Of a stretch of 64,000 nucleotides of DNA, positions 11,071 through 64,000 are shown one piece after another. The stretch is from Deltaproteobacteria bacterium (GTDB lineage Bacteria; Desulfobacterota; Binatia; UTPRO1). Position 1 is the stretch's first letter, and every line of letters begins with the position of its first letter. The stretch is from assembly GCA_016200545.1 (NCBI GenBank), contig JACQEO010000084.1:5528-69527 (forward strand), given 5' to 3'. The translations under genes and the position numbers were made by a program. Below the pieces are notes generated by a model. It saw nothing but the letters and a program-made list of their open reading frames with translations, did not search any database and was not told the origin of the DNA.

Positions 11071-11721
11071 ATGATCGATCACGCCCCTTCGTGCTCCGCG
11101 ATTCGTCGGCTGCTCGCCCTTGCGAGCATCCTCGTCCTGCTCGCGCACGCGCGACCCGCGGCCGCGACCACGCTGCTGCTGCTCGACCTCGACGCGCTCA
11201 CCGCCGCCGCCGATCGCGTCTTCATGGGCCGCGTCCTCACCGTCCGCAGTGGTCGCGATTCGAAGGGCCTGCCGGTCACGTGGACGACCTTCGCCGTCGA
11301 CGCGGCACTCAAGGGAGCACCGCCGAAGACGATCGAGATCAAGCAGCTCGGCGTCGACGCGCCGTTGCCCGACGGCGGCATCTTCCACATCCCCGCACTG
11401 CCGAGCTATCGCGTCGGCGACGAGGTCATCCTCTTTCTGCATCCCGAGAGCCGCGAAGGCTTCACCAGCCCCGTCGGCTTCGGCCAGGGTCGGTTCCGCA
11501 TCCGCCGTGACGGCGGCACCCCGGTCGCCGAGAACGACGTCGGCAACTCCAACCTCACGGCCGCGAGCGCCGGTAGCGTGCCCGTCGGCTCTGCGGCGAT
11601 GCGCGCCGAGACGCTCGCCGCCGGCCCGCCGTCCGCGGCAGCCGTCCTCCGGGCGCCGGCGCCGATCGCCGTCGACGAGCTCCTGACGCGCATTCGAGCA
11701 GCGGCCGATGCGTCGCGCTGA
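11071..11721 (+). CDS. Hypothetical secreted protein, coupled to the downstream metalloprotease
   Basis: Signal peptide 'MIDHAPSCSAIRRLLALASILVLLAHARPAAA'. Its 3' end overlaps the protease start by 14 nt. No recognisable domain. Confidence 0.5.
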   Translation: MIDHAPSCSAIRRLLALASILVLLAHARPAAATTLLLLDLDALTAAADRVFMGRVLTVRSGRDSKGLPVTWTTFAVDAALKGAPPKTIEIKQLGVDAPLPDGGIFHIPALPSYRVGDEVILFLHPESREGFTSPVGFGQGRFRIRRDGGTPVAENDVGNSNLTAASAGSVPVGSAAMRAETLAAGPPSAAAVLRAPAPIAVDELLTRIRAAADASR

Positions 11722-13921
11722 CCGCCGTCTCCGCGGCGTGCGCGCCCTCGCCGCGCCGCTGTTGGCGCTCACCGCGCTGGTCACAGGTCACGCCGACGCC
11801 GCCGGCCCGCTGATCGTGAACGGCGCCGGGACGCCGCTGGTGTGGAGCGGCGGCGTCGTCTCGTGGAATCCCGATCGCGGCACGCTCGGCACCCTCTCGA
11901 ACGCCGAGACCGTGAGCCTCGCTAGCGACAACTTCGCGAAGTGGCAGGCGGTGCCGACCGCGGCGCTCGCGATCTCCAACACCGGGGCGCTTCCCGTCGA
12001 CGTCACCACCGCCAACGTGAACGCGTTCATCGGTATCTGCGGCGACGGTCTCAGCCCGATCGTTTTCGACACCGACGGTTCGATCACTGATTCGCTGTTC
12101 GGCGTCGGCGCCTCCAATTCCATTCTCGGTTTCGCCGGTCCGGAGTGCGGCTCGCTGGTGCCGCCGGTGATCACCGAGGCCTCCGCGGTCCTGAACGGCA
12201 AGTTCATCGACGGCATTGCGACCGCGGGCAATCCGGAGATCAGCATCACGAGCTTCGCCCCGGTCCTGCTGCATGAATTCGGTCACTACCTCAACCTCGA
12301 GCACTCGCAGATCAATCTCCTCGAGGCGTTCGATCACAACGCCGCCAATGACGACACCATCGCGACGATGTTCCCGTTTCTGGTGAACGGCACCGAGGAG
12401 TCGATCCTGTCTCGCGATGACGAGGTCGCGATCTCGACGCTCTATCCGACGGCGGCGTTCAGCACCGCGTTCGGACGCATCACCGGCTCCGTGCTCCGTA
12501 GTGACGGGGTGACGCCGTTCCAGGGTGCGTACGTGATCGCCCGCAACGTCGCCGATCCCCGTCACGACGCCATCGGCTACGCCTCGGGCGAGCGCTACGT
12601 CCCGAGCGCGGCCGGTGGTCCGCCGGCTCCCGCGCTGCAAGGATTCTACGAGTTCCCGGGCCTCACGCCGGGGGCGAGCTACACCGTCGAGATCGAGCAG
12701 ATCTATGCCGGCTTCACCGGCGGTTCGAGTGTCGGCCCGTTCAGCACACCCGTCGTCTTGCCGGGGCCGGCCGAGTTCTGGAGCGGAGCGAACGAGGCCG
12801 CCGCTGACCCGCCCGACGACCCCAACGCGCCGGGCACGCCGATCATGGCCGTCGCGGCTGCGACGACCAGCGGCGTCGACATCGTCTTGAACGCCCTCGT
12901 GCCGCCGCCGAACGACGCCTGCGCCGACGCCACCAGCATCGCCGCCTTCCCATATGGCGACGGCGAGAGTACCGCAGGCGCGACCAGCGCATCGGGCGAT
13001 CCGATCCAGAACTGCAGCCCGGGCACGACGACCGCGAACGCCAACAGCGTCTGGTACCGCTTCACGGCACCGGCGGACGGCACCGTGACCGTCTCCACGA
13101 CCGGGAGCGACTACGACACCGTGCTCTCCGCCCACACCGGCGCGTGTGGCACGCTCGCCACCGTCGCCTGCGACGACGACATGACCGCTACCAACTTGCA
13201 GTCGGCGATCGGGTTCGCGGTGTCGGGCGGCACCAGCTACCTCGTCGAGGTCACGCAGTACGGCGCGCCCGGCGGTGGCGCGCTGCAGATCGCGGCCACG
13301 TTCACCGCGGGAGCCGCGGCGGGCTGTAATATCCCCGCGCCGGGAGCGTGCATCCCCGGAAAGGGCAAGCCGAACAGCGATTGCGTGACCGAGTGGCTGC
13401 TCGAGCCAGTGCCGCCGATCGACCGCGCGAAGGTGCCGCGCCGTAACGTCCCGGCGGCACGTCTCGCCTGCCACGACGGCGATCCGAGCTGCGACTTCGA
13501 CGGCGGCATCAAGGACGGCGGCTGCACCTTCCACGTAGCGGTGTGCGTGAACAACGACGATCCGCGCGCCGCGGCGGCCGGCTGTGTGCCGACGTCGATC
13601 GCGAGCTACCTCGTCAAGAAGCCGAGCGCGACGCGACCGAAAGACGCCGCCGACGTCGCCAACGGCGCGGCGCTTCGCAACGCGATCGCGGCGCTCGCAC
13701 TCTCCGGCGGCACCGTCGCGGGCGGGCTGGTCTCGTTCGTGCCGGCGGAGTCGATCGCGAACACCTGCACGCCCTTCCAGAACATCCGCGTTCCGATCGG
13801 CGCGCGGACGCTGCGCACGCGCGCGGCGACCGGGGCCGGCGTCGTCGACACCGATGGGCTGTCGCTGCGGTGTCTCCCAGCCGCGGCGGCCGCGGCAGCG
13901 CCGCGCCGCGGGCATCACTAG
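11708..13921 (+). CDS. Secreted metzincin-type zinc metalloprotease (matrixin-like HEFGHxxxLEHS) with a pre-peptidase C-terminal (PPC-like) domain and a Cys-rich C-terminal module
   Basis: Signal peptide 'LAAPLLALTALVTGHADAAG'. Zinc motif 'VLLHEFGHYLNLEHSQ' (HExxHxxxxxH). A PPC-like beta domain ('…NSVWYRFTAPADGTVTVSTTGSDYDTVLSAHTGACGT…'). A C-terminal ~198-aa Cys-rich tail. Confidence 0.7.
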   Translation: MRRADRRLRGVRALAAPLLALTALVTGHADAAGPLIVNGAGTPLVWSGGVVSWNPDRGTLGTLSNAETVSLASDNFAKWQAVPTAALAISNTGALPVDVTTANVNAFIGICGDGLSPIVFDTDGSITDSLFGVGASNSILGFAGPECGSLVPPVITEASAVLNGKFIDGIATAGNPEISITSFAPVLLHEFGHYLNLEHSQINLLEAFDHNAANDDTIATMFPFLVNGTEESILSRDDEVAISTLYPTAAFSTAFGRITGSVLRSDGVTPFQGAYVIARNVADPRHDAIGYASGERYVPSAAGGPPAPALQGFYEFPGLTPGASYTVEIEQIYAGFTGGSSVGPFSTPVVLPGPAEFWSGANEAAADPPDDPNAPGTPIMAVAAATTSGVDIVLNALVPPPNDACADATSIAAFPYGDGESTAGATSASGDPIQNCSPGTTTANANSVWYRFTAPADGTVTVSTTGSDYDTVLSAHTGACGTLATVACDDDMTATNLQSAIGFAVSGGTSYLVEVTQYGAPGGGALQIAATFTAGAAAGCNIPAPGACIPGKGKPNSDCVTEWLLEPVPPIDRAKVPRRNVPAARLACHDGDPSCDFDGGIKDGGCTFHVAVCVNNDDPRAAAAGCVPTSIASYLVKKPSATRPKDAADVANGAALRNAIAALALSGGTVAGGLVSFVPAESIANTCTPFQNIRVPIGARTLRTRAATGAGVVDTDGLSLRCLPAAAAAAAPRRGHH

Positions 13922-13942: not shown

Positions 13943-15106
13943 TCAGCCGAGCAGCCGCCGCGTCGCGAGATCGGCGCCGGCGCGCAACGCCGCGAGCTTC
14001 TCCCACACGATCTCCTCCGCCACCTCGCCGAGTCCCGCGGCGGTCGCGAAGCCGCAATCGGTGCCCGCGAGGACGCGGCGCGGATCGCCGACGGCACGCG
14101 CGGCGAGCTCGATGCGGTCGGCCACCACCTCGGGGTGCTCGACGTAGTTCGTCGTCGTGTCGATCACCCCGGCGACCAGCAGCATGCCCGGTGGTAGCGG
14201 GTGGCGGGCGAAGCAGCGGTGCTCGTGGGCGTGGCGCGGGTTCGCCATCGAGATCACCAGCGCGCCGACCCGCGCCTCGTAGAGCCACGGCAGGAGCTCT
14301 TCGAGCGGCACGTCGAGCGTATGCGGGGCCTCGTAGTTGCCCCAACACACGTGCATCCGTACCCGCTCCGGCGCGATGCCGTCGAGCGCGCGATTGATCG
14401 CGCCGATGTTCAGCTCGACCCAGCGCAGGAATTCCGTCAGCGGCCGATCGGCGAAGAGCGTGTGGCGCTCCATCGCGAGATCGGGACAGTCGAGCTGGAG
14501 GACGAGGCCGTGATCGACGATCGCGCGATACTCGACCCGCAGCGCCGCGGCGAGCGCGAGCACGTACTCGTCGAGCGTCGCGTAGTGGGCGTTCGCCATC
14601 GCGGCGGCGACGATCCCCGGCGACGCCGCGGTCATGAATGTCTCCACGAAGCGTCCGGACGACTCCCGCAGGATGCGGGCGAGATCGGCGCACTCGCGCT
14701 CGACGTGGCTCGGATCGGTGTAGCGCACCGCCTCGATCGCTTGCGGCGCGTCCATCAGGCTCACCATGGTGCGTGACAACTCCGGCAGCTTGAGGGCGAG
14801 GAAGCTCTGGAACTGTACGATGTCGCGCATGATCGGTCGCGCGCTCGCGCCGCCGAAGCCGCTCATGCGGTGTTGCACGTAGGTGAAGAAGCTCTCGCGC
14901 GGCTGTTCGCCGTCGTTGCCGACGTCGACGCCGGCGGCGAGCTGGCGCGCGATCACGTGCCGCGTCGACGCCTCGACCTCGCGCACGAACGCATCGGCGT
15001 CGACCGGCTCGCGTCGGCTGACGCGCACCAGCATCTCCACCAGCGCCGGCGTCCGCGGCAAGCTTCCGGCGTGCGTCGTCAGTATGCGCTCGTCACTCCG
15101 CTTCAT
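13943..15106 (-). CDS. Cobalamin-independent methionine synthase (MetE) C-terminal-domain-like protein (UROD/MetE superfamily)
   Basis: 'MKRSDERILTTHAGSLPRTPALVEM…' gives the TTxxGSxPR motif of MetE-like catalytic domains (~387 aa). The upstream part of the track ORF is Arg/Ser-rich frame noise, so the start is placed at this Met. Confidence 0.75.
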   Translation of the reverse strand: MKRSDERILTTHAGSLPRTPALVEMLVRVSRREPVDADAFVREVEASTRHVIARQLAAGVDVGNDGEQPRESFFTYVQHRMSGFGGASARPIMRDIVQFQSFLALKLPELSRTMVSLMDAPQAIEAVRYTDPSHVERECADLARILRESSGRFVETFMTAASPGIVAAAMANAHYATLDEYVLALAAALRVEYRAIVDHGLVLQLDCPDLAMERHTLFADRPLTEFLRWVELNIGAINRALDGIAPERVRMHVCWGNYEAPHTLDVPLEELLPWLYEARVGALVISMANPRHAHEHRCFARHPLPPGMLLVAGVIDTTTNYVEHPEVVADRIELAARAVGDPRRVLAGTDCGFATAAGLGEVAEEIVWEKLAALRAGADLATRRLLG

Positions 15107-15374
15107 CGTCGCCCTCCATCCCGTCCCCGAGTCGCCGGCTGACGACGATCTCGATCTCGTCGAGTGGCGAGACGCCGCGATTGCGGATGCGCGCGCTCCA
15201 GGCCGGCACCGAGCGGAGGTGGGTGAACACGGCGCGAATGAGCCCGGGCTTGACGCCGATCTCCCACTCGTCGAGCCACGCGTCCTCCTCGAAGTCCTCC
15301 TGCTCCCAGAGCGCGTCTGGAATCTCCGCCTCGAGGGTGAAGCGCAAGAGAAACGTCTTGTCGCGGGTCTCCAT
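15093..15374 (-). CDS. Small acidic hypothetical protein (93 aa), coupled to the MetE-like gene
   Basis: Composition (E/D/W/F/I/K-rich: 'METRDKTFLLRFTLEAEIPDALWEQEDFEEDAWLDEWEIGVKPGLIRAVF…') is unlike GC-frame artefacts. It overlaps the MetE-like start by 14 nt. No strong RBS. Confidence 0.4.
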   Translation of the reverse strand: METRDKTFLLRFTLEAEIPDALWEQEDFEEDAWLDEWEIGVKPGLIRAVFTHLRSVPAWSARIRNRGVSPLDEIEIVVSRRLGDGMEGDDEAE

Positions 15375-15411
15375 GCCGCGTTCGTAGCAGCGGGCCGCCT
15401 CTCGGCCAAGC

Positions 15412-16085
15412 TTGATGTTTGCATTCGCCGCGCGACCGATTCAGAGTCCGCGCGTGCGGCGGGAAACGCAGAGCGCGGTCGCGCCGAGCGGCTGGCCGCT
15501 CGTCGGCTGGCTGGCGCTCGCCCTCGTCGTCATGGTCGCCCTCCTACTCGCGCGCTTCGGCGCCGCCGAGGCGGGGATCCGCGTCTCATCCGCGCCACCG
15601 CGCGCACGTCGTTCACGCTCTTCCTGCTGGCGTTCGTCGCCGGCGCGCTCCGCCGCGCATGGCGCGGGCGCGCGAGCGCGTGGATCCTCGCCAATCGCCG
15701 CTACCTCGGGGTCTCCTTCGCGGTCTCGCACCTGCTGCACCTGCTCGCGATCCTCGCGCTCTACGACTGGTCCATACGGCGCTTCTTCGTCGAGACCGGC
15801 GTCGCCGCGAGCGTGTTCGGCGGCACCGGCTATCTCTTCGTCCTGGCGATGACCGTCACCTCGTTCGATCGCACCGCGGCCTGGCTTGGCCCGCGTCGCT
15901 GGCGGCGTCTGCACACGCTCGGCGTGTACTATCTCTGGATGATCTTCGCGCTCAGCTACGTGCCGCGCGCGCTCGTGGGATCGCCGGCATACGCGCCGCT
16001 CGCCGCCGGCGTGATCGCCGCGCTCGTCCTGCGTCTCGTCTACCGCCCGGGCCGCGCGCGCCGGGCGAGCCTCGCCGCAGCTTGA
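15412..16085 (+). CDS. Ferric-reductase-like transmembrane protein (MsrQ/YedZ-like), reading frame interrupted by an apparent -1 frameshift near 15580-15590
   Basis: The N-terminal TM segment ('SGWPLVGWLALALVVMVALLLARFGAAEAGIRV') is in one frame. The rest ('IRATARTSFTLFLLAFVAGALRRAW…NRRYLGVSFAVSHLLHLLAIL…HTLGVYYLWMIFALSY') is in another. Restoring one C in 'gtctc' would join them into a ~200-aa 6-TM protein. Confidence 0.5.
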
Positions 16086-27462: not shown

Positions 27463-28560
27463 TCAGAAGTCGTCCGGCGGCACGCAGAAGAAGCTCCCGG
27501 GGAGCGTGCGATTCACCAGCGCCAAGAGCTCCTCGGCGCGCGGCGCCGTGAAGCGCATGATGTCGTCGCTGACGCACTCCGCGCGGCGATAGGTGCAGAT
27601 CGCGTAGTGCGGCACGGTGGCGATGTTCGACACTCCGAAGTCGACGCACGTCTCGTCGTCGATCAGCGCCTGGTAGTCGACGCCGGTATCGGCGGCGAGC
27701 TGATCGAACGGAATTGCTCCGCAGCTCTTCCCGATCGCCGGCTCGACCGTGCGCGCACTCTTCTCGACCGCCGCGAACGCCTGGTCGCAGGTCTTCTGCG
27801 CCTTCGCGAGACACGTGCCGTCATCGTGCGCCGCGAGCTGCACACACGTGAAGACGGCGCCGAGACAGCGCCCGACGCTCTTCAGCTTGGTGCCGACGAA
27901 CGCCCCGCCCGCATTCGTCACGCCCTGCTGGCACTGCGCGACTTGCCGCCCGAGCTTGACGTCGTCCACCCCCTCCCCCGGGCCGCCCAGGTCGTCGAGA
28001 CACGAGTCCGGGCCGAGATCCGCGTTGGTGAGGTCGAAGAGCTCACCGGAACGCGGGTGCTCGGCGAGATAGATCTGCTCGATCGCGCACTCGTGCTGCT
28101 GCACGATGCACTCGGCGACGCTCGCCGTGTCTCCGAGCGTCACCCCGAAATCGAGACAGTCGGGCGCGATCAGCTCGTAGCCGACGCCGTCGGCGCGCAG
28201 CAGATCCGCGGGGTCGAGCGCCGCGCAGCCCTTGGTGATGGCGTCGGTGAGCCGCTGCTCCTCGGCCGTGATGACGTCGGTCGCCTTCACGCAGCGGAGC
28301 GACGCTTTCTCCAGACAAGCATCGACCGGATCCACGTCGGCCTCGAAGTCGTGCGCGACGGTCTGGAGGCACTTGAAGACCGCGCCCGCGCACTTGTCGA
28401 GCTGCTTGAGCTTCTTTTGCGCGAACGGCGTGGTGGCGGCGATGAGCGCCGATTGGCAGTCGGTTGCGAGCTTCGGCTGGGCGAGAAACCGCTCGCCCGC
28501 CGCTGCGCTCCGCGGCACGACCACGCTCACGAACGTTGCGAGTATCCATGCGATCATCAT
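27463..28560 (-). CDS. Secreted Cys-rich protein made of two tandem ~120-aa modules (8 Cys each), function unknown
   Basis: RBS GGAGGAGG 7 nt before ATG. Signal peptide 'MMIAWILATFVSVVVPRSAAA'. The duplicated pattern is 'KLKQLDKCAGAVFKCLQTVAHD…' and 'KLKSVGRCLGAVFTCVQLAAHD…'. Confidence 0.6.
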   Translation of the reverse strand: MMIAWILATFVSVVVPRSAAAGERFLAQPKLATDCQSALIAATTPFAQKKLKQLDKCAGAVFKCLQTVAHDFEADVDPVDACLEKASLRCVKATDVITAEEQRLTDAITKGCAALDPADLLRADGVGYELIAPDCLDFGVTLGDTASVAECIVQQHECAIEQIYLAEHPRSGELFDLTNADLGPDSCLDDLGGPGEGVDDVKLGRQVAQCQQGVTNAGGAFVGTKLKSVGRCLGAVFTCVQLAAHDDGTCLAKAQKTCDQAFAAVEKSARTVEPAIGKSCGAIPFDQLAADTGVDYQALIDDETCVDFGVSNIATVPHYAICTYRRAECVSDDIMRFTAPRAEELLALVNRTLPGSFFCVPPDDF

Positions 28561-28900
28561 AGTCACGCCTCCTCCATGGGGTGCCGCCCGGCGGGCGGTG
28601 CAATGCGCGGTCCACCCGCGCGACATTGCGGCGCCGGCATAAGTTCTCGCCCGAGCGGTATGCTCCGGTAGCTCAGGAGTGCCGCGAGCGCACGGATTTT
28701 GCTTCCCGCGTCGATCCACTGACGCACGGGACCGGTTTCCGTCGCGGTGCGCCTGCGAACCGACATGGAGAACCGCATGCCCGGCGGCGTCGCTTGACCG
28801 TTTCCGAACTCGTTTGACTAACGCCCAGGAACACCAACGGCGATCGGAGTGGTCGCCACCTCATCGGCAGAGGTCCCAGGGCACAAGGAGGTCGTTCGCA

Positions 28901-36730: not shown

Positions 36731-38689
36731 TCAGCGCGCAGGCAAACGTTGCTCGGCCTCCGCAAGCGCCGCACGGGCGCGCTCGAAGGTGGGATCGCGG
36801 CGGAGCAGATCGCGCCACTCGATCGTCGCCTGCGCGGGACGACCCGCCGACCACTGTGCCACGCCGAGCGTGAAGCGCGTCTGCGAGACGTCCGGGTCGA
36901 TCGCGAGCGCGCGCGCGTACGCCTCGGCCGCTTCGTCAGCGGCACCGATCGTCATCAGGAAATCGCCGTAGGCGGTGTCGCGCCGGAGCGCGGCGACGGG
37001 CACGCTGAGCGCGCGCCAGAGGCCGCTCGTCGGCGGTGACGGACTGTTGCGAGCGTGGCGCGCCGCGAACTCCCGCTCCGCCCGCTCGCGCACCGCGCGG
37101 TGGGCGTCGTCGGTCGGGAGATACAGCGATGCCGTCTCGTCGTAGTAGACGAGCTCCCACCCGTGCCCCGCGAGCAGGTAGCGCACCAGCGGAAAGCGAT
37201 TCGACCACACGTGATAGAGGAGCGCGTAGTCGGGTGCATAGCGCGTCACGACAGTCGGCCAGGTTCTCGGATCGTCGAGGGCGGCGAAGTAGAATCGGAA
37301 GAACTCCTCCGGGTACACCTCGAGCCGTCCGTCGACGAAGACACGCTCCGCGGGGAAGCGGCGCCACGCGAGGTAGCCGCCGGTCGCGAGGCAGTTGAAC
37401 GGACGGCCGCCGATCCCGACGTCGCGCGCGAACTCCTCCGCCGCGATCGGGAAGTGGAGCGACGACACCCCGAGGCCGAACTCGCGTTCGATGTCGAGAG
37501 AGCGCGAGAACCGATTGGTGACGACGCTCGCGACGAGGAGCGCGAGCACGACGATGACACCGCCGGTCGCCACGGGCGCGAGCGCCGCCGCGAGACGGCC
37601 GGATGCCGCCGGCGCGCGCGCGCGCGCGTCGCGCCGCTTTTCGCCGCGCGCCGTGGGCGACGGGTCCGCCGAGCGGGTGCAGAGCGGGCCGAGGTTGGCG
37701 GCGATCGCGGGCACGGCGACCCAGGCGAAGAGCGCCACGTTGCGGAGGGCCTGCGTCGACAGCGCCGCCAGCAGCGCGGTGACGAAGAGACGGCCGAGGT
37801 GCCAGCGCCTGATGCTCACGATGAACGACACCGCCACGAAGATGATCGTCGCCACCCACGTGTACGCGAGCGGTACGCCGTATCCCGATTGGAACGGCGG
37901 CCGGAACTCGCCGATCCGTGCCGAGAGGAGCGAGCTGCCGGTCACTCTCGGCAAGAGCTCGAGCGGAAAGAGCACGCCGCGTAGGCCGTAGGGATTGAGG
38001 AAGCAGGCGGCGGTCGCCAGCACCAGGACCAGCGTCAGCCGGCGCCATTCGCCCGGGCTCGCGCCGCTCGCCGCGCGCCACCCCCGCGGCAGGGGGAGGA
38101 ACGCGAGCGTCGCGCCCGCCCAGTAGCATCCGATCACGACCAGGCCGACGGCGAAGATTCCTTGCGAGTTCGTCCACACGACCTGTAGCGGGACGAGCCA
38201 GTAGAGCGCGCGACCGTTGCGTGGAAAACCGTCGAGGAGCCACAGATACGTCGCGAGGAGCACGAACGACAGCAGCTCGGGCCGCGGCACGAACCGCGGA
38301 CTGGCGACGACGAGCGCGATCGCGATCAGTAGCGCGACGAGCACGTCGGGCGCGAACCGTCGCGCCGACGCATGGAGAATCGTCACGGTCGCGAGCACCA
38401 GGACGACGGCGAGAATGATGCAGCCGTCGGCGCCGCCGAGCGCGTACGCGGCGTAGAGCACGAGCTGAAACACCCAGTGCAAGTCGATCCACGGGTGGTC
38501 CGGCGTCGTGTACGCGAAGGTGTTGCTGACCGGCCAGCGCCAGGTCGTCATCATCAAGCGGCCGGCCGCGAGGTGGTACCAGACGTCGTAGTCGTCGATC
38601 GGCCGCAGCGTGAAGACGATCCCGAGGAGGGCCGTGAGCCCGACCGCGACCTGCGACCAACGCCGACCGAGTGGAGACGTCCGCGGCAT
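36731..38689 (-). CDS. Polytopic GT-C-type glycosyltransferase-like membrane protein (PMT_2/ArnT/TMTC-like) with C-terminal TPR repeats
   Basis: About 11 TM helices with an acidic first-loop motif ('LRPIDDYDVWYHLAAGRLMMTTWRW'). The C-terminus carries TPR-like repeats ('…AEAYARALAIDPDVSQTRFTLGVAQWSAGRPAQATIEWRDLLRRDPTFERARAALAEA'). Confidence 0.55.
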   Translation of the reverse strand: MPRTSPLGRRWSQVAVGLTALLGIVFTLRPIDDYDVWYHLAAGRLMMTTWRWPVSNTFAYTTPDHPWIDLHWVFQLVLYAAYALGGADGCIILAVVLVLATVTILHASARRFAPDVLVALLIAIALVVASPRFVPRPELLSFVLLATYLWLLDGFPRNGRALYWLVPLQVVWTNSQGIFAVGLVVIGCYWAGATLAFLPLPRGWRAASGASPGEWRRLTLVLVLATAACFLNPYGLRGVLFPLELLPRVTGSSLLSARIGEFRPPFQSGYGVPLAYTWVATIIFVAVSFIVSIRRWHLGRLFVTALLAALSTQALRNVALFAWVAVPAIAANLGPLCTRSADPSPTARGEKRRDARARAPAASGRLAAALAPVATGGVIVVLALLVASVVTNRFSRSLDIEREFGLGVSSLHFPIAAEEFARDVGIGGRPFNCLATGGYLAWRRFPAERVFVDGRLEVYPEEFFRFYFAALDDPRTWPTVVTRYAPDYALLYHVWSNRFPLVRYLLAGHGWELVYYDETASLYLPTDDAHRAVRERAEREFAARHARNSPSPPTSGLWRALSVPVAALRRDTAYGDFLMTIGAADEAAEAYARALAIDPDVSQTRFTLGVAQWSAGRPAQATIEWRDLLRRDPTFERARAALAEAEQRLPAR

Positions 38690-38698
38690 GGCCCGCGA

Positions 38699-39673
38699 TC
38701 AGCGTAGAACGCGATAGCCGCCGAACACCGCAACCCAGAGGACGGCGACGATCAGCGCGTACTTGAGGGCATAGTACACCTGCCGATTCGCCTTCTTGAA
38801 GCGCTTCAGCGGTGCCCGCGTCCGATAGACATGCTCGAAGACGCGATTCGCGAGACCGACTTCCTCGCCATCGACGTTCTTCGACGCGGTGAGGCCGACG
38901 ATGTGGCGGATCACGAAGCCGTTGAGGGCGCGCATGACGGCGGTACGCAACGGCCGTTCGACGTCGCAGAAGAGGATGATGCGCGTCTGATCGGTGCGGT
39001 TCTCGAAGCGATGCACGTAGGTCTCGTCGAAGACCAGGTCCTGACCGTCTCGCCAGGAGTAGGATTGACCGTCGACGAAAATCCGGCACTCGTCGCGGTT
39101 GGGCGTGATCAATCCGAGATGGTAGCGGATCGAACCCGCGAACGGATCGCGGTGCTCGCCGACCGCGGCCTGCGGTCCGAGGAGCGCGAACATCGCCCCG
39201 TGGACGGTCGGAATCGACTCCACGAGCGCGACCGTCCGCGGGCAGAGCGCCCGCGCCGAGGGCAGCGGCGCGCCGTACCACTTCAGGTAGAACCGCTTCC
39301 ATCCCTTGCGAAAGAAGGTATTGAACCCGAGGTCGTCGTGGCGCTCGGAGGCGCGGATGTGACCCGCCTCGCAGAGACGCAGCGCCTCCTCGCGGATCGT
39401 CCGCCAGTTGGCACGCAACGACGCGACCTCGGGGAACCGCTCGACGTCGAGCATCGGCGTCGTCGGGACGCGCGAGAAGAGGTAGACGAGCACGTTGTAA
39501 GGCGCGAGGAACGTCGAGTGATCGGTGAGCTGGCGTCGGAAACTCAGGCGTACCCGACCGCGGTAGTGCACGTAGAGCGCGGACGCGAGGAAGCCCGCAA
39601 AGAGGACGAGCCGCGTGAGGGCGAGGGCGCTCATCCGACGCGCACGGTCGTCTGTCGTTCCATGACGCGCCAT
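38699..39673 (-). CDS. Aspartyl/asparaginyl beta-hydroxylase family Fe(II)/2-oxoglutarate dioxygenase (AspH/LpxO-like) with N- and C-terminal TM anchors
   Basis: '…FFRKGWKRFYLKWYG…HGAMFALLGPQAAVGEHRDPFAGSIRYHLGLITPN…CRIFVDGQSYSWRDGQDLVFDETYVHRFENRTDQTRIILFCDVERP' is the AspH cupin core. TM helices at both termini. The stop lies 10 nt from the downstream glycosyltransferase-like gene. Confidence 0.7.
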   Translation of the reverse strand: MARHGTTDDRARRMSALALTRLVLFAGFLASALYVHYRGRVRLSFRRQLTDHSTFLAPYNVLVYLFSRVPTTPMLDVERFPEVASLRANWRTIREEALRLCEAGHIRASERHDDLGFNTFFRKGWKRFYLKWYGAPLPSARALCPRTVALVESIPTVHGAMFALLGPQAAVGEHRDPFAGSIRYHLGLITPNRDECRIFVDGQSYSWRDGQDLVFDETYVHRFENRTDQTRIILFCDVERPLRTAVMRALNGFVIRHIVGLTASKNVDGEEVGLANRVFEHVYRTRAPLKRFKKANRQVYYALKYALIVAVLWVAVFGGYRVLR

Positions 39674-39826
39674 CTCTGACGATGCGCGGCGTTTTTGGCA
39701 AGTCCCGTCGCGCGGACGCGGGCAGGCGCGCACGGCTCTCCCGTCCTGGTTGCATTTCGACGACCGACTGATCCACAATCCGCGCCTGCGCCCCTGAAGG
39801 CGCGATCGTCACGCACGGAGGACCCC

Positions 39827-41701: not shown

Positions 41702-42898
41702 TCAGTCCGCGGTCGCCTCGGAATACACCGGCCGCGTCGCCGCCGAATACGGCCACGGCTCCGCGTCCGTCACGGCGATCAGCGCGCGCACGAAGGCGTC
41801 CTGGCGCGCGCGCGCGTCTGGCACGGGAACCCCGTGGTGCAGGACCGCGAAGCGCACGACCCCGAAGCGCCGGGTGCGGAGCGCGCCGGCGAGGGCGGAG
41901 GCACCGACCGAGCCGAAGGTGCCGGTCTTGCCGACGACGATCCCGGGACGTTCGGTCACCCGATCCTCGAGTGTCCCGTGATCGATGCCCGACACCGGGA
42001 GCGCCGCGGTGAGGTCGTTGCCGTGACGCGCGAGCTCGTCCATGAGCGCGCCGAGGAGCGCGACCGCAGCGCGTGGGCTCATCCTGTTGGTCTCGCCCGC
42101 GCCGGCGCCGTTGTCGATCACGATCTCGTCCCGCATCGCTTCGGGTACGTGCGCGCGGGCGTTCTCTTGAACGGCGGCCGCACCGCCGACCGCGTCGGCC
42201 GCAAAGTGGAAGACGTTGTTCGAGTAGCAGTTGAGCGCCTTGACGACGTGGAGGAGCGGCGGCGAGTGGAGCGCGGCGAGCGCTCGCCCGGGGCCCGACT
42301 TCGATCGCCGGCCGAGAAAGACGAGCGCGGTCTCGCGCAAACCCTCCGACGTCCCGTCGAGGTCGGTGACCAGCGCGCGCGCCTCGCCCCCGGCCTTGCC
42401 TGCGAGCACGGCGCCGAATCGCCGCCCACCCGGGTCCGGCTGCCAGTCGAACAGCAGCGGCCCGCGCACGACGAGTCGCCCCTCGACGACCCGCAGCCCG
42501 CGCGTGTGTAGCCGTCGGAGCAGCAGCAACGCGCTCTCGTCGACCAGGAACGGGTCGCCTCCGCCCTCGACGACGAGGTCTCCCGCGAGACGTCCCGCGC
42601 GTAGCGGACCGGCGCCGCGCAGGCGCGTCTCGAAGCGATGCGTCGGACCGAGACGCGCGAGCAACGCGAGCGACGTCGCGATCTTGGTGACCGATGCGGG
42701 ATGCACGGCGTGATCGGCGGCTTGCGCGACGAGGATCGTACCGTCGCCGGCGACGGCATACACCCCCTGTCCCTCGCCGACGGTCGATCGCGCCAGCCCT
42801 TGCAGTGCCGGCTCGGCAGCGGCGAGGGTCGCGTACAGCACGAGAGCGAGCGCTCCCATCGTCCTCGTCGCGGGCGACTCGGGTGGCATGGCGAGCAT
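41702..42898 (-). CDS. D-alanyl-D-alanine carboxypeptidase/endopeptidase, PBP4 (S13, DacB-like)
   Basis: Ordered SxxK 'ASVTK', SxN 'YSNN' and KTG 'GKTGT' motifs, plus a signal peptide. Confidence 0.7.
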   Translation of the reverse strand: MLAMPPESPATRTMGALALVLYATLAAAEPALQGLARSTVGEGQGVYAVAGDGTILVAQAADHAVHPASVTKIATSLALLARLGPTHRFETRLRGAGPLRAGRLAGDLVVEGGGDPFLVDESALLLLRRLHTRGLRVVEGRLVVRGPLLFDWQPDPGGRRFGAVLAGKAGGEARALVTDLDGTSEGLRETALVFLGRRSKSGPGRALAALHSPPLLHVVKALNCYSNNVFHFAADAVGGAAAVQENARAHVPEAMRDEIVIDNGAGAGETNRMSPRAAVALLGALMDELARHGNDLTAALPVSGIDHGTLEDRVTERPGIVVGKTGTFGSVGASALAGALRTRRFGVVRFAVLHHGVPVPDARARQDAFVRALIAVTDAEPWPYSAATRPVYSEATAD

Positions 42899-43044
42899 TG
42901 TGCGGACGACTGCCCGGCCGTCAACGAGCGGCCAAACCGTCGCGCCATCCGTCGCGTTCTTCCGCATCATTCCTAGTTGACCGCGCGATCGCGATGTCTC
43001 ACAGTTCGGCAGCAGACGATCCGTTCCATCTCATGAGGTACCGC

Positions 43045-44583
43045 ATGCGAAGGACGACGCGCGCACCGATGAACCCCGAGCCTTCCAACCTGACGCGCGC
43101 ACGCTGCAGTGCGCTGCTCGCGGCGCTGCTGATCGTGGCGCCGGTCGCTCCGTCCGCGCACGCCGCGCCGCGTGGCAAGCGCCACCCGCGCGACGTCGCC
43201 CTCGGTCTCAGCGTGCAACCGGGGCCGCAATGTCACCTCGGTCGTCACACGCTGACGTATCACGGCGGCGACCTCGTCCAGAACGTCGCCGTGTTCATCC
43301 TGTTTTGGGGTCCCGAGTGGCAAACCGATGCCGAGCATCAGGCGGCCGCCGCCTCCCTGCGCACGATGTACCACCAACTCGGCGGCAGTGAGTACGGCTG
43401 CTCGTGGCAGGAATTCGCGTTGCCGGGCAGTCCGATCGGCGGCGGATCGTATGCCGGCGACGAGATCATCCCGACGCCGCCCGTCTCCCCGGGCCAGCAG
43501 CTCGACGACGCCGACATCCAGGCGCGGATCCTGACGGAGGTACAGGCCCACCGCGCGCCGGACGCGACCGACGACACGTTCTATGTCGTCGTGCCGCCCA
43601 AAGGCGTGCCGGTGATCGCCGGTGGCGAGACGGGCTGCGGCGGGACGAACTTCACCTTCTGCGGCTATCACGACAGCTTCGCGAGCGGCGGGAAGCGCCT
43701 CCGCTACACGGTCCTGCCGTACCCGTGCAGCTCGGGCGGCGCGACTTGCTTCGTCGATTTCCAAGAGAGTGTCGTACCCTCCTTCCAGGCCGTCGGCTCG
43801 CACGAGCTCTCGGAGACGGTGACCGATCCCGATCAGCCCCCGGTCGGTGGGAGCGGCTGGTTCGACGACCACAGCGGCGACGAGGACGCCGACATTTGTG
43901 CGAGCGACACTTGCCTCGTCGACCTCCCCGTGGGCGTGGACGCGTTCACCGTCAACTCGCTGTGGTCGAACCTCGGCGGCGACTGTGTCGCCAGCGCTCC
44001 CTGCGCGGTGCCACCGGCCGCGTGCACCGATCCCGCGCCGGGCGCCTGCGTCACCAACACCCGCAGTCCGCAGGCCTGCGACCTCGAGTGGCACGTCGAG
44101 CCGAACCTCACCCGCGACCGCAATGGCTTCGCCGGCGGGGTGGTCTCTTGCGCCGACGGCCAGCCGTTCTGCGACGTCGATGCCACGGCGGACGGCCGGT
44201 GCACGTTCCACGTCGCGGTCTGCCTGAATAGCACCGACCCGCGCTTCGCCTGCACCGCGAGCGCCGTCGATTCCGTGCAGCTGCGCGGCAAGCTCGCCCG
44301 CAGCTCGGACCCGACCGATAACGCGAATGCCGCCGCGCTCCTCCCGGCGCTCGAGAATGCCGACCCCGGCAGCGCCGGCGCCGCGACGGGGAGCGTCGTC
44401 ACGTACACCCCGGCCGCCGCCACCAGCGACGCGTGCAGCAGCTATGTCGACGTCGTCGTCCCGGTGAAGTCGCGCAACGGGCGCATCACACCGGGAAAGC
44501 GTACGCTACAGGTGGCGACGCGAACCGCGACCAGTAAGGTGAGCGAGAAGCTGACGCTGATCTGTACGCCGACGTTCCTCTGA
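43045..44583 (+). CDS. Secreted protein with an N-terminal PHI-1/EXORDIUM-like domain and the same Cys-rich C-terminal module as the metalloprotease at 11708..13921
   Basis: AGGT-N6-ATG. Signal peptide '…CSALLAALLIVAPVAPSAHA'. 'LTYHGGDLVQNVAVFILFWGPEW' resembles the Phi_1 (PF04674) N-motif. The C-terminal 178 aa align with the C-terminal 198 aa of the metalloprotease. Confidence 0.6.
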   Translation: MRRTTRAPMNPEPSNLTRARCSALLAALLIVAPVAPSAHAAPRGKRHPRDVALGLSVQPGPQCHLGRHTLTYHGGDLVQNVAVFILFWGPEWQTDAEHQAAAASLRTMYHQLGGSEYGCSWQEFALPGSPIGGGSYAGDEIIPTPPVSPGQQLDDADIQARILTEVQAHRAPDATDDTFYVVVPPKGVPVIAGGETGCGGTNFTFCGYHDSFASGGKRLRYTVLPYPCSSGGATCFVDFQESVVPSFQAVGSHELSETVTDPDQPPVGGSGWFDDHSGDEDADICASDTCLVDLPVGVDAFTVNSLWSNLGGDCVASAPCAVPPAACTDPAPGACVTNTRSPQACDLEWHVEPNLTRDRNGFAGGVVSCADGQPFCDVDATADGRCTFHVAVCLNSTDPRFACTASAVDSVQLRGKLARSSDPTDNANAAALLPALENADPGSAGAATGSVVTYTPAAATSDACSSYVDVVVPVKSRNGRITPGKRTLQVATRTATSKVSEKLTLICTPTFL

Positions 44584-48426: not shown

Positions 48427-49716
48427 TCAAAACCCGACCGCCAATTCGGACAGGAACTCGTGGTTGTTCGGCGCGTCACGCGGGATGTCGCGGTCGTACT
48501 CGAGCTTCCACACGACCGACGGCGTGATCCAGTAGTCGACGCCGAGCGATACCTGCCGCGGGTGCGGCAACTGCCCTTCCGGCGCTTGTCGCTGATTCTG
48601 ACCGGAGTAGCGCGCGACGAGCTCGACGCGATCCCACGGAGACGGCGCGATCTGGCTCAGCATGTAGCTCCCCTGGATGTAGTACCCTTCACGCTCGTCG
48701 CGCACCGCTCCCGGGAGGTCCCGCCGGGTCGAGATGTACTCTCCACGCAGCTCCGCGTCGCCGTACTGATAGACCGAATCGATGCCCCATGCCGTGAACC
48801 ACTTGCCGCCCTTCGCGTCCCACTCTCCGTCGTACGTCGACGCCCCGATCCGCAGGCGACCGGCATTCCATTCGAACGGCAGCGGGCGGAAGCCGACGCG
48901 CGCCCCGAATCCCTTGCTACGGTTCAAGTCGTCGTTGTTGAACGTCAGCGGGTCGCCGATCGCGCCGTCCCCGTCACCGGTGTCGAAGCGTGGCCCGTTG
49001 CCGACGTATGCGGTGTAGTCGACGTCCGCACCCAGGCCGTATCCGAGCCCGGCGCCGCCGTGAAGCTGCACGCCGAGATCGGTGAACGGCATGATGCCGC
49101 CCTCGTCGCCCTCGCGGAACGGCAACGGATGCGTCACCAGCTTGTTGATCCACGGCGGATGCAGCCGCTCGATGAACTCGCCGAAGGGCAGGAGAAACTT
49201 TCCCGCTGTAACCGTCAGATAGTCGTTCACCAGATAGTCGGCCTGCGCGAACTCGAGGTTCACCTCGGTCTCCGCGTCCTCCGGTAGTTTCACCTCGAGC
49301 TCGCCCGAGAACAGCAGACGATCGTTCAGCCGAAACAAGAAGATCGGATTGAAACCGCCGCTGAAGGTGTTGTGATTGGCGTTGTCGTCCCAGTGGTACT
49401 GAGCGAAGCCATATCCGGTGATCAGGAAGCGGTGTTCGCCGTAGTACGTGTCGAGCGCCCGTCGCAGTATGTCCGGCCGCAATCCGCTCGTCGCCGCTTG
49501 TTCCGCCTTCGGCTGTTCCGCTTGCCGCGCCTTCAGCTGTCCGACCGTCTCCTCGAGCTCTTTGATGCGCTGCTGGTTCCGCTCGTTCTCGTTTCGAAGT
49601 GCCTGGATCTCCGACTCGACGTCAGTCAGCGATCCTGCCGCCGGCACCGGGGCGGGCATCATGATGAAAGACGCAATCAGGAACGTGGCAAGCGTGTATC
49701 GACGTTGGATACGCAT
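48427..49716 (-). CDS. Outer-membrane porin-like beta-barrel protein with an N-terminal coiled coil
   Basis: Signal peptide 'MRIQRRYTLATFLIASFIMMPAPVPAAG'. Coiled coil 'ESEIQALRNENERNQQRIKELEETVGQLKAR'. Alternating amphipathic beta-strands ending in C-terminal 'ELAVGF' (aromatic terminus). Confidence 0.55.
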   Translation of the reverse strand: MRIQRRYTLATFLIASFIMMPAPVPAAGSLTDVESEIQALRNENERNQQRIKELEETVGQLKARQAEQPKAEQAATSGLRPDILRRALDTYYGEHRFLITGYGFAQYHWDDNANHNTFSGGFNPIFLFRLNDRLLFSGELEVKLPEDAETEVNLEFAQADYLVNDYLTVTAGKFLLPFGEFIERLHPPWINKLVTHPLPFREGDEGGIMPFTDLGVQLHGGAGLGYGLGADVDYTAYVGNGPRFDTGDGDGAIGDPLTFNNDDLNRSKGFGARVGFRPLPFEWNAGRLRIGASTYDGEWDAKGGKWFTAWGIDSVYQYGDAELRGEYISTRRDLPGAVRDEREGYYIQGSYMLSQIAPSPWDRVELVARYSGQNQRQAPEGQLPHPRQVSLGVDYWITPSVVWKLEYDRDIPRDAPNNHEFLSELAVGF

Positions 49717-50157
49717 CCCCAACCCTCCTCCGGTCCGCTGCGTTGTCACCGAGGAAAGCCCGGCTCCCGTCTAGCACCGGCCGTACCATCTCGACGCGTC
49801 CCGGAAAGAGCGATTTGCCGTGCGATCCTCCGATATTCGAGAAAATTCTGCGACGTATTCTCGACGCCGGGAACGCCGCGTCTGCCGTTCCTCTGTTCAT
49901 CCACCTTCGCTAGATTGCGATCGTGGCCGACGTCACCGGCCGCATGCTCCTTTCACATCGTGCCGGCCTGCCCGCGATCGGCCGCCCGCTTCCACGTCTT
50001 GCGCGGACGGAGACGATCGCGCACGCGATCGCCGAGGCATCATCAGCCCGGTCCGCGCTGGCAGAACCCGCGCAATCGGGCGCTCATCGCCGCGGTCTAC
50101 GCGTCCCTCCGATACGCCCCGTCCCGCCGTCGTCGCGACCTGCTCGTCGCTTCTCGG

Positions 50158-62103: not shown

Positions 62104-62877
62104 ATGCGAACGCTTTCGCGTACACGGGCAACGCTCGAGAAGCGATCCCGCACAATCCAGATCGTCGTCACGCCGGGATCCGGCAATGGTCGTGCGCTGA
62201 ATACGGCGCGCCGGCTGGACGAGGAGCTTCGGGCTCGCGGACATCCGGCCGGGCTCGAAGTGTTTTCCGACCGCGAATGCCTGCGCCGCTGGGCAACAAA
62301 GGGCGACGCGAAATTCTCCCTGTTGGTTTCCGTGGGCGGCGACGGGACGCAGGACACTGCCGCGGTCGCGGCCGTCCGGCGGTCGGTGCCATTTCTCTCG
62401 GTGCCCTACGGTTTCGGCAATCTCTTTGCGCGCGCCCTCGGGCATTCGCATCGTGTCGATGAGGTAGTCGATGCGCTCGAGTACGGCGAGCTCGTCAGCA
62501 TCGACGTCGGCGTGCGAAACGGTGAGCTCTTCCTCTGCCAAAAGAGCTACGGGTTGTTGGCGCAGATCGAAAACGAGGTGGGAATCGTCGGTCGGCCTCG
62601 TGTGCGACGGCGCCGCGACCTCGCGTACTACCGGATGGCGGTGCAGGTGGTGCGTCCGCGCTCGCGACCGATGCGACGCGACGTGGGCGGGCCCTTCCTG
62701 TTTTCGCCAACCGCCGGCGGCGCTGAACGTCAGCTGCTGCCTGACCGAACGGCCCTGCCAGGTCCCGGCCGCACCGACTCACACGATGCAACTCCGACGC
62801 GCGACAGCTTAGTATTGTCCAGATGGGCTTACGACCGACAGACAGGCACGCGGATGCGGTGCTCGGCCGCGACGTGA
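62104..62877 (+). CDS. Diacylglycerol-kinase catalytic-domain lipid kinase (DAGK_cat/YegS-like); C-terminal ~80 aa atypical (Arg/Pro-rich)
   Basis: 'IVVTPGSGNGRA…LLVSVGGDGTQ…SVPYGFGNLFARALG' are the DAGK_cat motifs. After '…AYYRMAVQVV' the sequence becomes low-complexity, which may indicate a frameshift or a degenerate accessory domain. Confidence 0.55.
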   Translation: MRTLSRTRATLEKRSRTIQIVVTPGSGNGRALNTARRLDEELRARGHPAGLEVFSDRECLRRWATKGDAKFSLLVSVGGDGTQDTAAVAAVRRSVPFLSVPYGFGNLFARALGHSHRVDEVVDALEYGELVSIDVGVRNGELFLCQKSYGLLAQIENEVGIVGRPRVRRRRDLAYYRMAVQVVRPRSRPMRRDVGGPFLFSPTAGGAERQLLPDRTALPGPGRTDSHDATPTRDSLVLSRWAYDRQTGTRMRCSAAT

Positions 62878-62938
62878 CCGTCCGCCTCGAGGTGGTGGTC
62901 ACGTCGGCATACGACGGCACCGACTGGGAGCGGGACAA

Positions 62939-64000
62939 GTGCCGTCAATGACGAGCGCGATCGAGATCCTGGGCGCCGACACGCTCCAGCGTTTGCCGCA
63001 GGTGACATCGGGAGCGGAGCGGTCCGTCCGCTATACGCGAGCGATCGTTCAGGACGGCGCGCGGTCGTACGTCGACAACGCCGACGTCGAGATGAAGGCG
63101 CTGGTCGTCGATGGAAAGGTGTTGCCACTCGTGCTCGCCAAGGCGGGCGGGGAGAACTCGAATGTTTGCTCGCCGTATTCGCACTATGTGCGGTACCTCG
63201 CCGCCGAACGCGCCATGCGCCATCCGCGGATCCCGCCGTTTCTGTTCGACGCCGCCGGACTGCCCGCCGGTCTGACGCTCAAGCTCGGGGGCATCGAGCG
63301 CGTCGTCTACGTAAACAACTGGCTCCTCGGCACCAACCCGAGCCCGGGGCTGTCGTCGGATCAGATCACCCGACTCACCGCCACGCTCGCGACCACCTAT
63401 CCACGCTCGGCGATCGTGTTCCGGTCGGTCAACCCGCGCCTTGACCCATCCGGTTTCGTTGCCCTGCAGCGAAACGGCTACCGGCTCGTCCGCAGTCGGT
63501 GGGTTTACGTGCTCGATCCCACGAGCGGCCGTCACCTGGCCCGCACGAACGTTCGCATGGATCTCGAGCTCTTGCGGCGCACCTCGTACGACGTCGTGGG
63601 CAGCTCCAAGGACCTCGAGCCGCATGTCGCTCGCATCACGACGCTGTACCGCGACCTGTACGTGCGCAAGTATCCCGACCTGAATCCCCAGTTCAATACG
63701 CGATTCTTCGCGCTCACGCTCCGAGACGAGGTCTTCACCTATCGCGCCCTCACGAACGACGGCCGCCTCGACGCCTTCACATCGTACTTCATCGAGGGCG
63801 GCGTTCTCACCGGTGTCGTCATCGGGCACGATCGGCAATTGCCGCGCACGCTCGGTCTCTATCGCATGGTCGTCGCAATCTTGATCGCGGAGGCCGCCGC
63901 CCGCGGGCTCCTGTTGAATATCAGTGCGGGCGCCGATCAGTACAAGATGCTGCGTGGTGCTCGCCCGGTGGATGAGTTCGATGCGGTGTACGAACGGCAT
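62939..64000 (+). CDS. FemAB/GNAT-like acyltransferase family protein (Acetyltransf_6-like), 3' end outside the window
   Basis: Not in the ORF track because no stop falls inside the window. An open frame from GTG at 62939 (GGGAG 8 nt upstream) or ATG at 62948 gives 'MTSAIEILGADTLQRLPQV…FTSYFIEGGVLTGVVIGHD…LYRMVVAILIAEAAARGLLLNISAGADQYKMLRGA…'. This is real-protein composition and a GNAT-like C-terminal motif. The listed 351-aa minus ORF is its antisense. Confidence 0.5.
   Translation, partial: MPSMTSAIEILGADTLQRLPQVTSGAERSVRYTRAIVQDGARSYVDNADVEMKALVVDGKVLPLVLAKAGGENSNVCSPYSHYVRYLAAERAMRHPRIPPFLFDAAGLPAGLTLKLGGIERVVYVNNWLLGTNPSPGLSSDQITRLTATLATTYPRSAIVFRSVNPRLDPSGFVALQRNGYRLVRSRWVYVLDPTSGRHLARTNVRMDLELLRRTSYDVVGSSKDLEPHVARITTLYRDLYVRKYPDLNPQFNTRFFALTLRDEVFTYRALTNDGRLDAFTSYFIEGGVLTGVVIGHDRQLPRTLGLYRMVVAILIAEAAARGLLLNISAGADQYKMLRGARPVDEFDAVYERH

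Follow-up and report, generated by a model that had tools for sequence, protein, structure and literature searches.

A 64,000-nucleotide stretch of contig JACQEO010000084.1 (assembly GCA_016200545.1, a Deltaproteobacteria bacterium placed in the Binatia lineage UTPRO1), referred to throughout as the window and having a GC content of 68.5%, encodes two otherwise unrelated secreted proteins that end in the same cysteine-rich domain of about 185 amino acids (aa). This domain is a member of a genuine family of considerable size that is restricted to one lineage, has not yet been named and is a solid candidate for a new domain of unknown function (DUF), and it belongs to a known kind of element, the accessory β-sandwich modules of secreted bacterial proteins. 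Rather than a cleavable C-terminal sorting signal of the sortase type, it looks like a folded module, movable among diverse secreted cargo. Judged from sequence, the chances are about even that this module is locked by disulfides and serves for binding or docking outside the cytoplasm. The two carrier proteins, here called A and B, and the two copies of the domain are located as follows, with the domain of protein A termed tail A and all residue numbers of the domain following it.

11708..13921 (+): protein A, a 737-aa open reading frame (ORF) for a secreted zinc-metallopeptidase-like protein, with a third-position GC content (GC3) of 0.89
13325..13888 (+): copy 1 of the domain, corresponding to aa 540-727 in protein A, delimited by BLASTP against copy 2, by a hidden Markov model (HMM) of family members from outside the window and by AlphaFold 2 (AF2)
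43045..44583 (+): protein B, secreted, about 505-512 aa, delimited by candidate starts, signal peptide and orthologues
44023..44577 (+): copy 2 of the domain, its 10 Cys equivalent in position to those of copy 1, delimited by the outside-family HMM and by alignment

A shared C-terminal module on two unrelated secreted proteins had been proposed in a preliminary description of this DNA, and the proposal is confirmed by a BLASTP alignment of tail against tail (69.7 bits, E=6e-20 with composition-based statistics, 33% identity over 187 columns), which aligns all 10 Cys over about 185 aa and reproduces the motif quoted there, C..EW..EP ... C.DG.P.CD.D ... DG.CTFHVAVC.N..DPR. The N-terminal parts of the two proteins are unrelated (best BLASTP E=2.6), in line with the earlier statement that these domains are completely different. 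When either tail is searched with tblastn against the six frames of the window, the sole match is the other tail (E about 1e-20; the rest E>1). The outside-family HMM, built from 132 members with both window copies left out, recovers protein A at E=1.7e-52 (HMM positions 1-186) and protein B at E=1.5e-48 (positions 1-185), and has no match in the window beyond these two ORFs. The location of copy 1 stands as first given, position 13325 being codon 540 of the 737-aa ORF 11708..13921 and in frame, and position 44047, first given as the start of copy 2, is likewise in frame; the boundaries and the count of nine to ten Cys are revised. Copy 1 ends at about 13888, and the homology of copy 2 begins at 44023, 8 codons before 44047, where CTDPAPGAC aligns with the CNIPAPGAC at 13325. 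With this earlier start the two copies agree at exactly 10 Cys apiece, all in register, those of copy 1 occupying tail positions 1, 9, 20, 49, 56, 67, 74, 87, 148 and 183.

Two Cys-rich tails encoded by GC-rich DNA might resemble each other by chance or through composition, and the high GC content of the window and the low pairwise identity are the only points in favor of such an artefact, to which we assign virtually no probability. It is refuted by a pairwise E-value of 6e-20 that was reached despite composition-based statistics, by the register of 10 out of 10 Cys, by the more than 1300 clusters of the family, and by independent HMM E-values of about 1e-50 for both tails and for nothing else in the window, so that the similarity withstands the statistical check that had been proposed for it.

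The preliminary description did not recognize the tail as a named family, and this holds for the libraries searched. Neither the window copies nor 35 diverse members of the family have a match on the domain at E<=1, the cut-off used for all library searches, in Pfam-A (24,736 models, 2025 copy), NCBIfam 20.0 or a PDB sequence profile, and the literature searched contains no description of the domain. Its carriers are currently labelled 'hypothetical protein', 'cysteine-rich repeat protein' or 'parallel beta-helix repeat protein'. The scan for further tail-bearing proteins that had been suggested reveals a large family: an exhaustive HMMER census of 1.84 billion representatives, clustered at 50% identity, yields 1347 clusters at E<=1e-3, 766 at E<=1e-10 and 37 at E<=1e-30. 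A word-indexed homologue search is nearly blind to the family because its index is too coarse for such divergence, with tail A returning 1 fragment and a 35-sequence profile 14 hits.

Genomes were also sampled at the DNA level with a degenerate pattern for CxDGDPxCDxD, which captures motif-bearing members alone and gave at least 120 loci. The HMM finds a real domain in 115 of 120 loci, and the remaining five are low-GC or unrelated chance matches. Among the matches listed, all true loci lie in high-GC metagenome-assembled genomes (MAGs) labelled Candidatus Binatia/Binatota, Deltaproteobacteria, Thermodesulfobacteriota, Myxococcales or Polyangiaceae UTPRO1, and several genomes contribute 3-7 domain loci each, with tandem arrays at some of them. 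The family is almost confined to uncultured Binatia (Binatota) and is greatly expanded there. One such array (L011:1-7104, minus strand) comprises at least five paralogous genes, each of which starts with a compact, helix-less domain of about 115 aa with all 8 core Cys and continues into an uncharacterized Cys-rich region of about 350 aa.

Conservation profiles drawn from sets of 35, 57 and 132 members single out a small group of residues. Eight Cys (20, 49, 56, 67, 74, 87, 148 and 183) are invariant in the 35 diverse members together with G52, D57 and D59, and the polar residues E23, W24, N76, D79 and R81 are further conserved in 57-132 members. The near-invariant motifs (35-132 members) are IPGGG....DC..EW, C.DGDP.CD.DG, C.N..DPR, AN..AL, VP and D.D.L.L.C.P, of which the acidic signature of the domain may be written C-x-DGDP-x-CD-x-DG ... 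C-x-N-x-x-DPR. Conservation of E23, D53, D57, D59, N76, D79 and R81 is irrespective of cargo. The eight invariant Cys probably form four disulfides, to which an optional N-terminal Cys pair would be added.

Structure prediction of the module, which had been recommended, gives a confident single domain when AF2 is supplied with the 35-sequence alignment (predicted local distance difference test score, pLDDT, 90.4; predicted template modelling score, pTM, 0.85); a model from 3 sequences (pLDDT 56.6) was discarded. The predicted strands span residues 22-27, 46-50, 66-75, 92-99, 130-142, 152-157, 159-169 and 174-184, and the helices are 80-84 (short) and 108-122 (long). The long helix is an apparent insertion into the sandwich core, because the helix segment is missing from compact versions of the domain (about 115 aa), in which all eight Cys are retained. 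In this model the domain is an autonomously folding unit of about 180 aa, predicted to consist of a β-sandwich core and one inserted helix.

Many secreted bacterial enzymes carry accessory domains of the PPC, PKD or Big type, and the Cys-rich domain could in the same manner be a passive stabilizing or spacer domain or an intramolecular chaperone, with no common ligand. Its predicted fold is probably of the generic Ig-like sandwich class and in protein A it follows a PPC/GBD-like domain, as such a role would have it, yet the invariant and near-invariant polar and acidic residues across all cargo types go beyond the conservation usual in spacers, and neither a preference for the termini nor fusions to small redox domains would be expected. 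This explanation is judged improbable; since cargo makes no difference to the conservation of many polar and acidic residues and the termini are preferred, a common function is likelier than a passive spacer. The domain also differs from the PPC (PF04151), PKD and Big sandwiches in being disulfide-rich and larger and in having an inserted helix and strongly conserved acidic motifs. The corresponding Pfam models do not match the tails or the 35 members at E<=1, the PPC/GBD-like hit of protein A lying upstream of the tail.

The position of the domain within its proteins was counted in the best 150 representatives of the 1347 clusters. Most carry a C-terminal copy, either as the single copy (88) or as the last of two (30), and the protein then ends 1-10 residues past the last Cys, 2 and 4 residues being commonest. 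The others have an N-terminal copy only, right after the signal peptide (9), or only internal or otherwise placed copies (23). Among genome-locus ORFs with a closed 3′ end (n=117), the last copy is C-terminal in 47 and not in 70, a number that includes partial and compact matches. The proposed restriction of the module to the C-terminus is contradicted by the 32 of 150 representatives and the 70 of 117 locus ORFs devoid of a C-terminal copy and by the existence of tandem copies. Moreover, the nearest non-orthologous relatives of tail A are internal or N-terminal copies (P0048, residues 298-491 of 1458; P0065; P0084; P0058; P0055, residues 20-212 of 240; P0079), and position is therefore not a property of subfamilies.

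The cargo is varied and largely extracytoplasmic in appearance, with an N-terminal hydrophobic, signal-like region in 71 of 87 full-looking proteins by a crude test. A Pfam survey of partner domains in 57 full-length family proteins finds DUF4215 Cys-rich repeats adjoining the domain in 24, and otherwise TSP_3, Beta_helix/NosD, Disintegrin, Sortilin/BNR, Peptidase_M10, Metallophos and CBM96 as well as the β-propellers DUF5122, FG-GAP and Lactonase. DUF4215 (the Myxococcus cysteine-rich repeat; PF13948, TIGR02232) shares with the domain a high Cys content, an extracellular setting and the organisms in which it occurs; it is a repeat of about 40 aa (CGNG..E.GE.CDDGN...C), whereas the domain is a distinct unit of about 180 aa, and PF13948 matches none of 35 domain segments, the DUF4215 hits falling in flanking regions. 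The fusions of cargo and tail are old and stable, as read from orthologues in which the architecture is identical: protein A and its orthologue P0002 share 80% identity across the full length, and protein B shares 44-50% with P0017 (50%), P0022 and P0028, again across the full length.

In two proteins (P0159 and P0161) the cargo is a small redox domain at the C-terminus, cupredoxin-like and labelled 'plastocyanin' by the Joint Genome Institute (JGI). It is joined through a poly-Thr linker to a divergent copy of the Cys-rich domain, which here follows the signal peptide at the N-terminus. In a family of about 320-350 aa, a signal peptide and an N-terminal copy are followed by a C-terminal domain of about 120 aa with SCA.SGCHDS ... 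RMP ... WI..GAP (C-x4-CH). A PSCyt1-like identity was considered for this C-terminal part and rejected, Pfam giving no hit. The family is represented by the following gene, with similar ORFs at loci L004, L014, L021, L026, L038, L057, L095 and L113 and in P0154 and P0157.

L013:3008-3985 (+): member of the family of about 320-350 aa with an N-terminal copy

A further family of about 950 aa, found in many Binatia MAGs (P0004, P0008 and about 30 similar representatives; loci L006, L032, L105 and L109), combines a β-helix-like N-terminus, DUF4215 repeats, a copy of the domain, more DUF4215 repeats and a C-terminal copy.

These architectures bear on the idea that the domain serves a Binatia-specific outer-membrane pathway as a folded C-terminal unit for secretion or surface sorting, recognized and then cleaved or exchanged for an anchor in the manner of the C-terminal domains (CTDs) of the type IX secretion system (T9SS). 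The T9SS CTDs of Bacteroidota (type A, TIGR04183/Por_Secre_tail; type B, TIGR04131) are likewise β-sandwiches, usually located at the extreme C-terminus of diverse secreted or surface cargo in one lineage, and the Cys-rich domain shares with them the predicted β-sandwich, a very C-terminal location in 118 of the best 150 representatives (which end 1-10 residues past the last invariant Cys), a highly diverse cargo typical of secreted and surface proteins and the confinement to one lineage. It differs in being about twice as long, in its 8-10 Cys, in its Binatia lineage and in occurring at N-terminal, internal and tandem positions also, so that it is not obligatorily C-terminal. Such a pathway is hard to reconcile with complete proteins whose only copy is N-terminal or internal, including the conserved family of about 330 aa, with two-copy proteins, and with the phylogenetic intermixing of the positional classes, where the closest paralogues of tail A are not C-terminal. 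Nor is there a match of the domain at E<=1 to the CTD models of Pfam and NCBIfam (Por_Secre_tail, TIGR04183, TIGR04131), the GBD_T9SS_assoc match of protein A at aa 402-498 lying outside the tail, or a translocon-like neighbor that recurs in the 115 loci. We consider this explanation, the main rival to a binding or docking module, unlikely.

An analogy to PEP-CTERM and MYXO-CTERM had also been drawn, and it is not supported. Like the PEP-CTERM, MYXO-CTERM and GlyGly-CTERM signals of exosortase and rhombosortase substrates, the domain is a conserved C-terminal feature on diverse secreted proteins of a lineage. PEP-CTERM-type signals are about 25-30 aa long, with a motif followed by a transmembrane helix and then a cluster of basic residues; the domain, in contrast, is a globular unit of about 185 aa that is not restricted to the C-terminus, as its N-terminal and internal copies attest, and the tripartite tail is present in none of 150 family proteins, in whose last 40 residues neither a transmembrane-like stretch (0/150) nor a basic tail is found. 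The PEP-CTERM/MYXO-CTERM models of NCBIfam give no relevant hit at E<=1 for both full proteins or the 35 members.

Gene neighborhoods were surveyed in 8-kb genome loci and in the 64-kb window, and the suggested co-occurrence with a sortase, exosortase or rhombosortase is seen in neither. No exosortase- or sortase-like gene is present among the approximately 30 window genes scanned with Pfam, which are housekeeping or metabolic (2-oxoglutarate dehydrogenase, GlmU-like, RND efflux, OmpA-family, ZnuA, EF-P and others), and clustering of neighbors across 121 loci returns no recurring sortase- or translocon-like gene. The largest neighbor cluster consists of antisense ORFs of the Cys-rich genes and was set aside as an artefact. 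The sole recurring neighbors in the 115 loci are DUF1800 (18 loci) and a DUF1501 protein with a twin-arginine translocation (TAT) signal (16 loci), both of which go with the N-terminal-copy subfamily of about 330 aa.

A second way of giving the domain a common role is cohesin-dockerin-style docking, by which secreted enzymes and redox proteins would be assembled on a common scaffold or on one another, the two-copy proteins of about 950 aa serving as scaffolds. One module at either terminus of many unrelated enzymes and the existence of two-copy proteins are compatible with this, and the acidic motif, of the D-x-D-G type, is reminiscent of docking loops that depend on Ca2+; against it, no partner family was identified in the survey, neither the sequence nor the predicted structure is like that of cohesin or dockerin, and the motif departs from the canonical DxDxDG loop. 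The prospect of this arrangement is slim. In a broader comparison, SLH domains and dockerins also occur at either terminus of very different cargo, with Ca2+ dependence and tethering that may be supposed for the domain as well, although it resembles them neither in sequence nor in structure.

The reading of the domain as a disulfide-locked binding or docking module may be set out in steps. Its carriers would be exported by Sec, and the domain would be oxidatively folded in the periplasm, acquiring four conserved disulfides and one optional pair. The product would be a stable module that functions independently of position and docks or binds its cargo to a common ligand, possibly a partner protein or some component of the cell envelope or matrix, with the conserved Asp/Glu/Asn cluster acting as a Ca2+ site or ligand site. 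Several points weigh against this reading. We infer the export route, the cellular location, the ligand, the disulfides, a bound Ca2+ and the docking or binding itself, and a structural role alone could account for the conserved acidic residues. In 118 of 150 representatives (79%) no more than about 10 residues separate the end of a C-terminal copy from the stop codon; so strong a preference is not what a plain binding module usually shows, and a part played in secretion or processing could lie behind it. Furthermore, the hunt for co-inherited machinery spans the 8-kb loci and the 64-kb window, not whole genomes. By analogy, the domain could also be the recognition or docking handle of a Binatia-specific surface-display or secretion system, a suggestion that is distinctly doubtful; such a handle would be captured by outer-membrane or matrix machinery as an independently evolved analogue of the T9SS CTD or of cohesin-dockerin.

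Protein A is an exact match to NCBI entry MBI3770688.1 ('hypothetical protein HY271_19640 [Deltaproteobacteria bacterium]', from a Deltaproteobacteria-labelled MAG) and is also found on a metagenome contig from SRR12113411. Outside the Cys-rich domain, its features are the following.

11708..11800 (+): probable Sec signal peptide, MRRADRRLRGVRALAAPLLALTALVTGHADA then AGP, with a basic n-region, a hydrophobic core and an A-x-A site
12272..12304 (+): zinc-binding motif HEFGHYLNLEH (HExxHxxNxxH), by regular expression on the translation
12362..12379 (+): possible Met-turn ATMFPF, by regular expression on the translation
12911..13252 (+): β-sandwich accessory domain (GBD_T9SS_assoc / PPC-like), separate from the tail, by Pfam PF23759 and PF04151
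13889..13921 (+): ten-residue Ala-rich C-terminal extension (AAAAAAPRRGHH region) and stop codon, from the sequence, with a pLDDT of 68 in the last block

The signal peptide is a probable one, assigned by reading the sequence. The designation of protein A as a metzincin, made in the preliminary description, is weakly supported: HEFGHYLNLEH speaks for it, with Asn at the position where HExxHxxGxxH expects Gly, and the Pfam Peptidase_M10 match (aa 180-246, E=6.5e-4, 20 bits) falls under the 24-bit gathering cut-off. The accessory domain upstream of the tail is matched by PF23759 at aa 402-498 (E=1.8e-6) and by PF04151 at aa 448-515 (E=8.2e-4). The protein ends ...LRCLPAAAAAAAPRRGHH*, and its Ala-rich extension is not a transmembrane anchor. 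A 216-aa ORF at 11071..11721 (+), apparently secreted and unmatched in Pfam, runs 14 nt into the start of the protease gene, and because of this overlap the two are probably co-transcribed; the same pair is also called on a metagenome contig (L121).

Protein B lies within a longer ORF, 42694..44583 (+), with a GC3 of 0.82, in which position 44047 is codon 452. The 5′ end of this ORF falls inside an S13 D-Ala-D-Ala carboxypeptidase gene on the opposite strand (41702..42970), and the true start is probably 43045, which has GAGG at -10, or 43069 rather than 42694; either of the two downstream starts yields a normal signal peptide, ...LLAALLIVAPVAPSAHA/APRGK. At its other end the protein stops one residue past the domain (...LTLICTPTFL*). 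The label 'PHI-1-like' that had been attached to protein B is not upheld, as the whole protein, its N-terminal region and the three orthologues P0017, P0022 and P0028 have no Pfam hit at E<=1, to PHI-1/EXORDIUM (PF04674) or otherwise. What is left is a resemblance to PHI-1 at the level of the motif YHGG...WG. Protein B has no sequence match in the PDB either.

About 3 kb from protein B, the window encodes a member of the aspartyl/asparaginyl β-hydroxylase family (38702..39808, minus strand; PF05118, E=1.7e-47). Eukaryotic homologues hydroxylate Asp and Asn in Cys-rich EGF domains, and bacterial ones are usually LpxO-like; a link between this gene and the Asp/Asn-rich Cys domains would be pure speculation. 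Five other sizeable ORFs in the window have a coding-like GC3 and no Pfam match at E<=1e-5, located at 27466..28860 (-), 36734..38698 (-), 48430..49770 (-), 62813..64000 (+) and 14883..16082 (+).

To our knowledge, no member of the Binatia (Binatota) has been cultured or had its cell-surface biology described. The domain marks a large set of Binatia secreted and surface proteins, often with several copies per genome, and is itself invisible to annotation with Pfam, NCBIfam and the PDB. As it stands, the finding provides a candidate for a new DUF and a lead to the biology of the exoproteome, with no new mechanism shown. Defining the family would improve the annotation of Binatia genomes and furnish a simple marker for exported proteins, and if the domain does have a common ligand or partner, it would offer a handle on how this phylum organizes its exoproteome.

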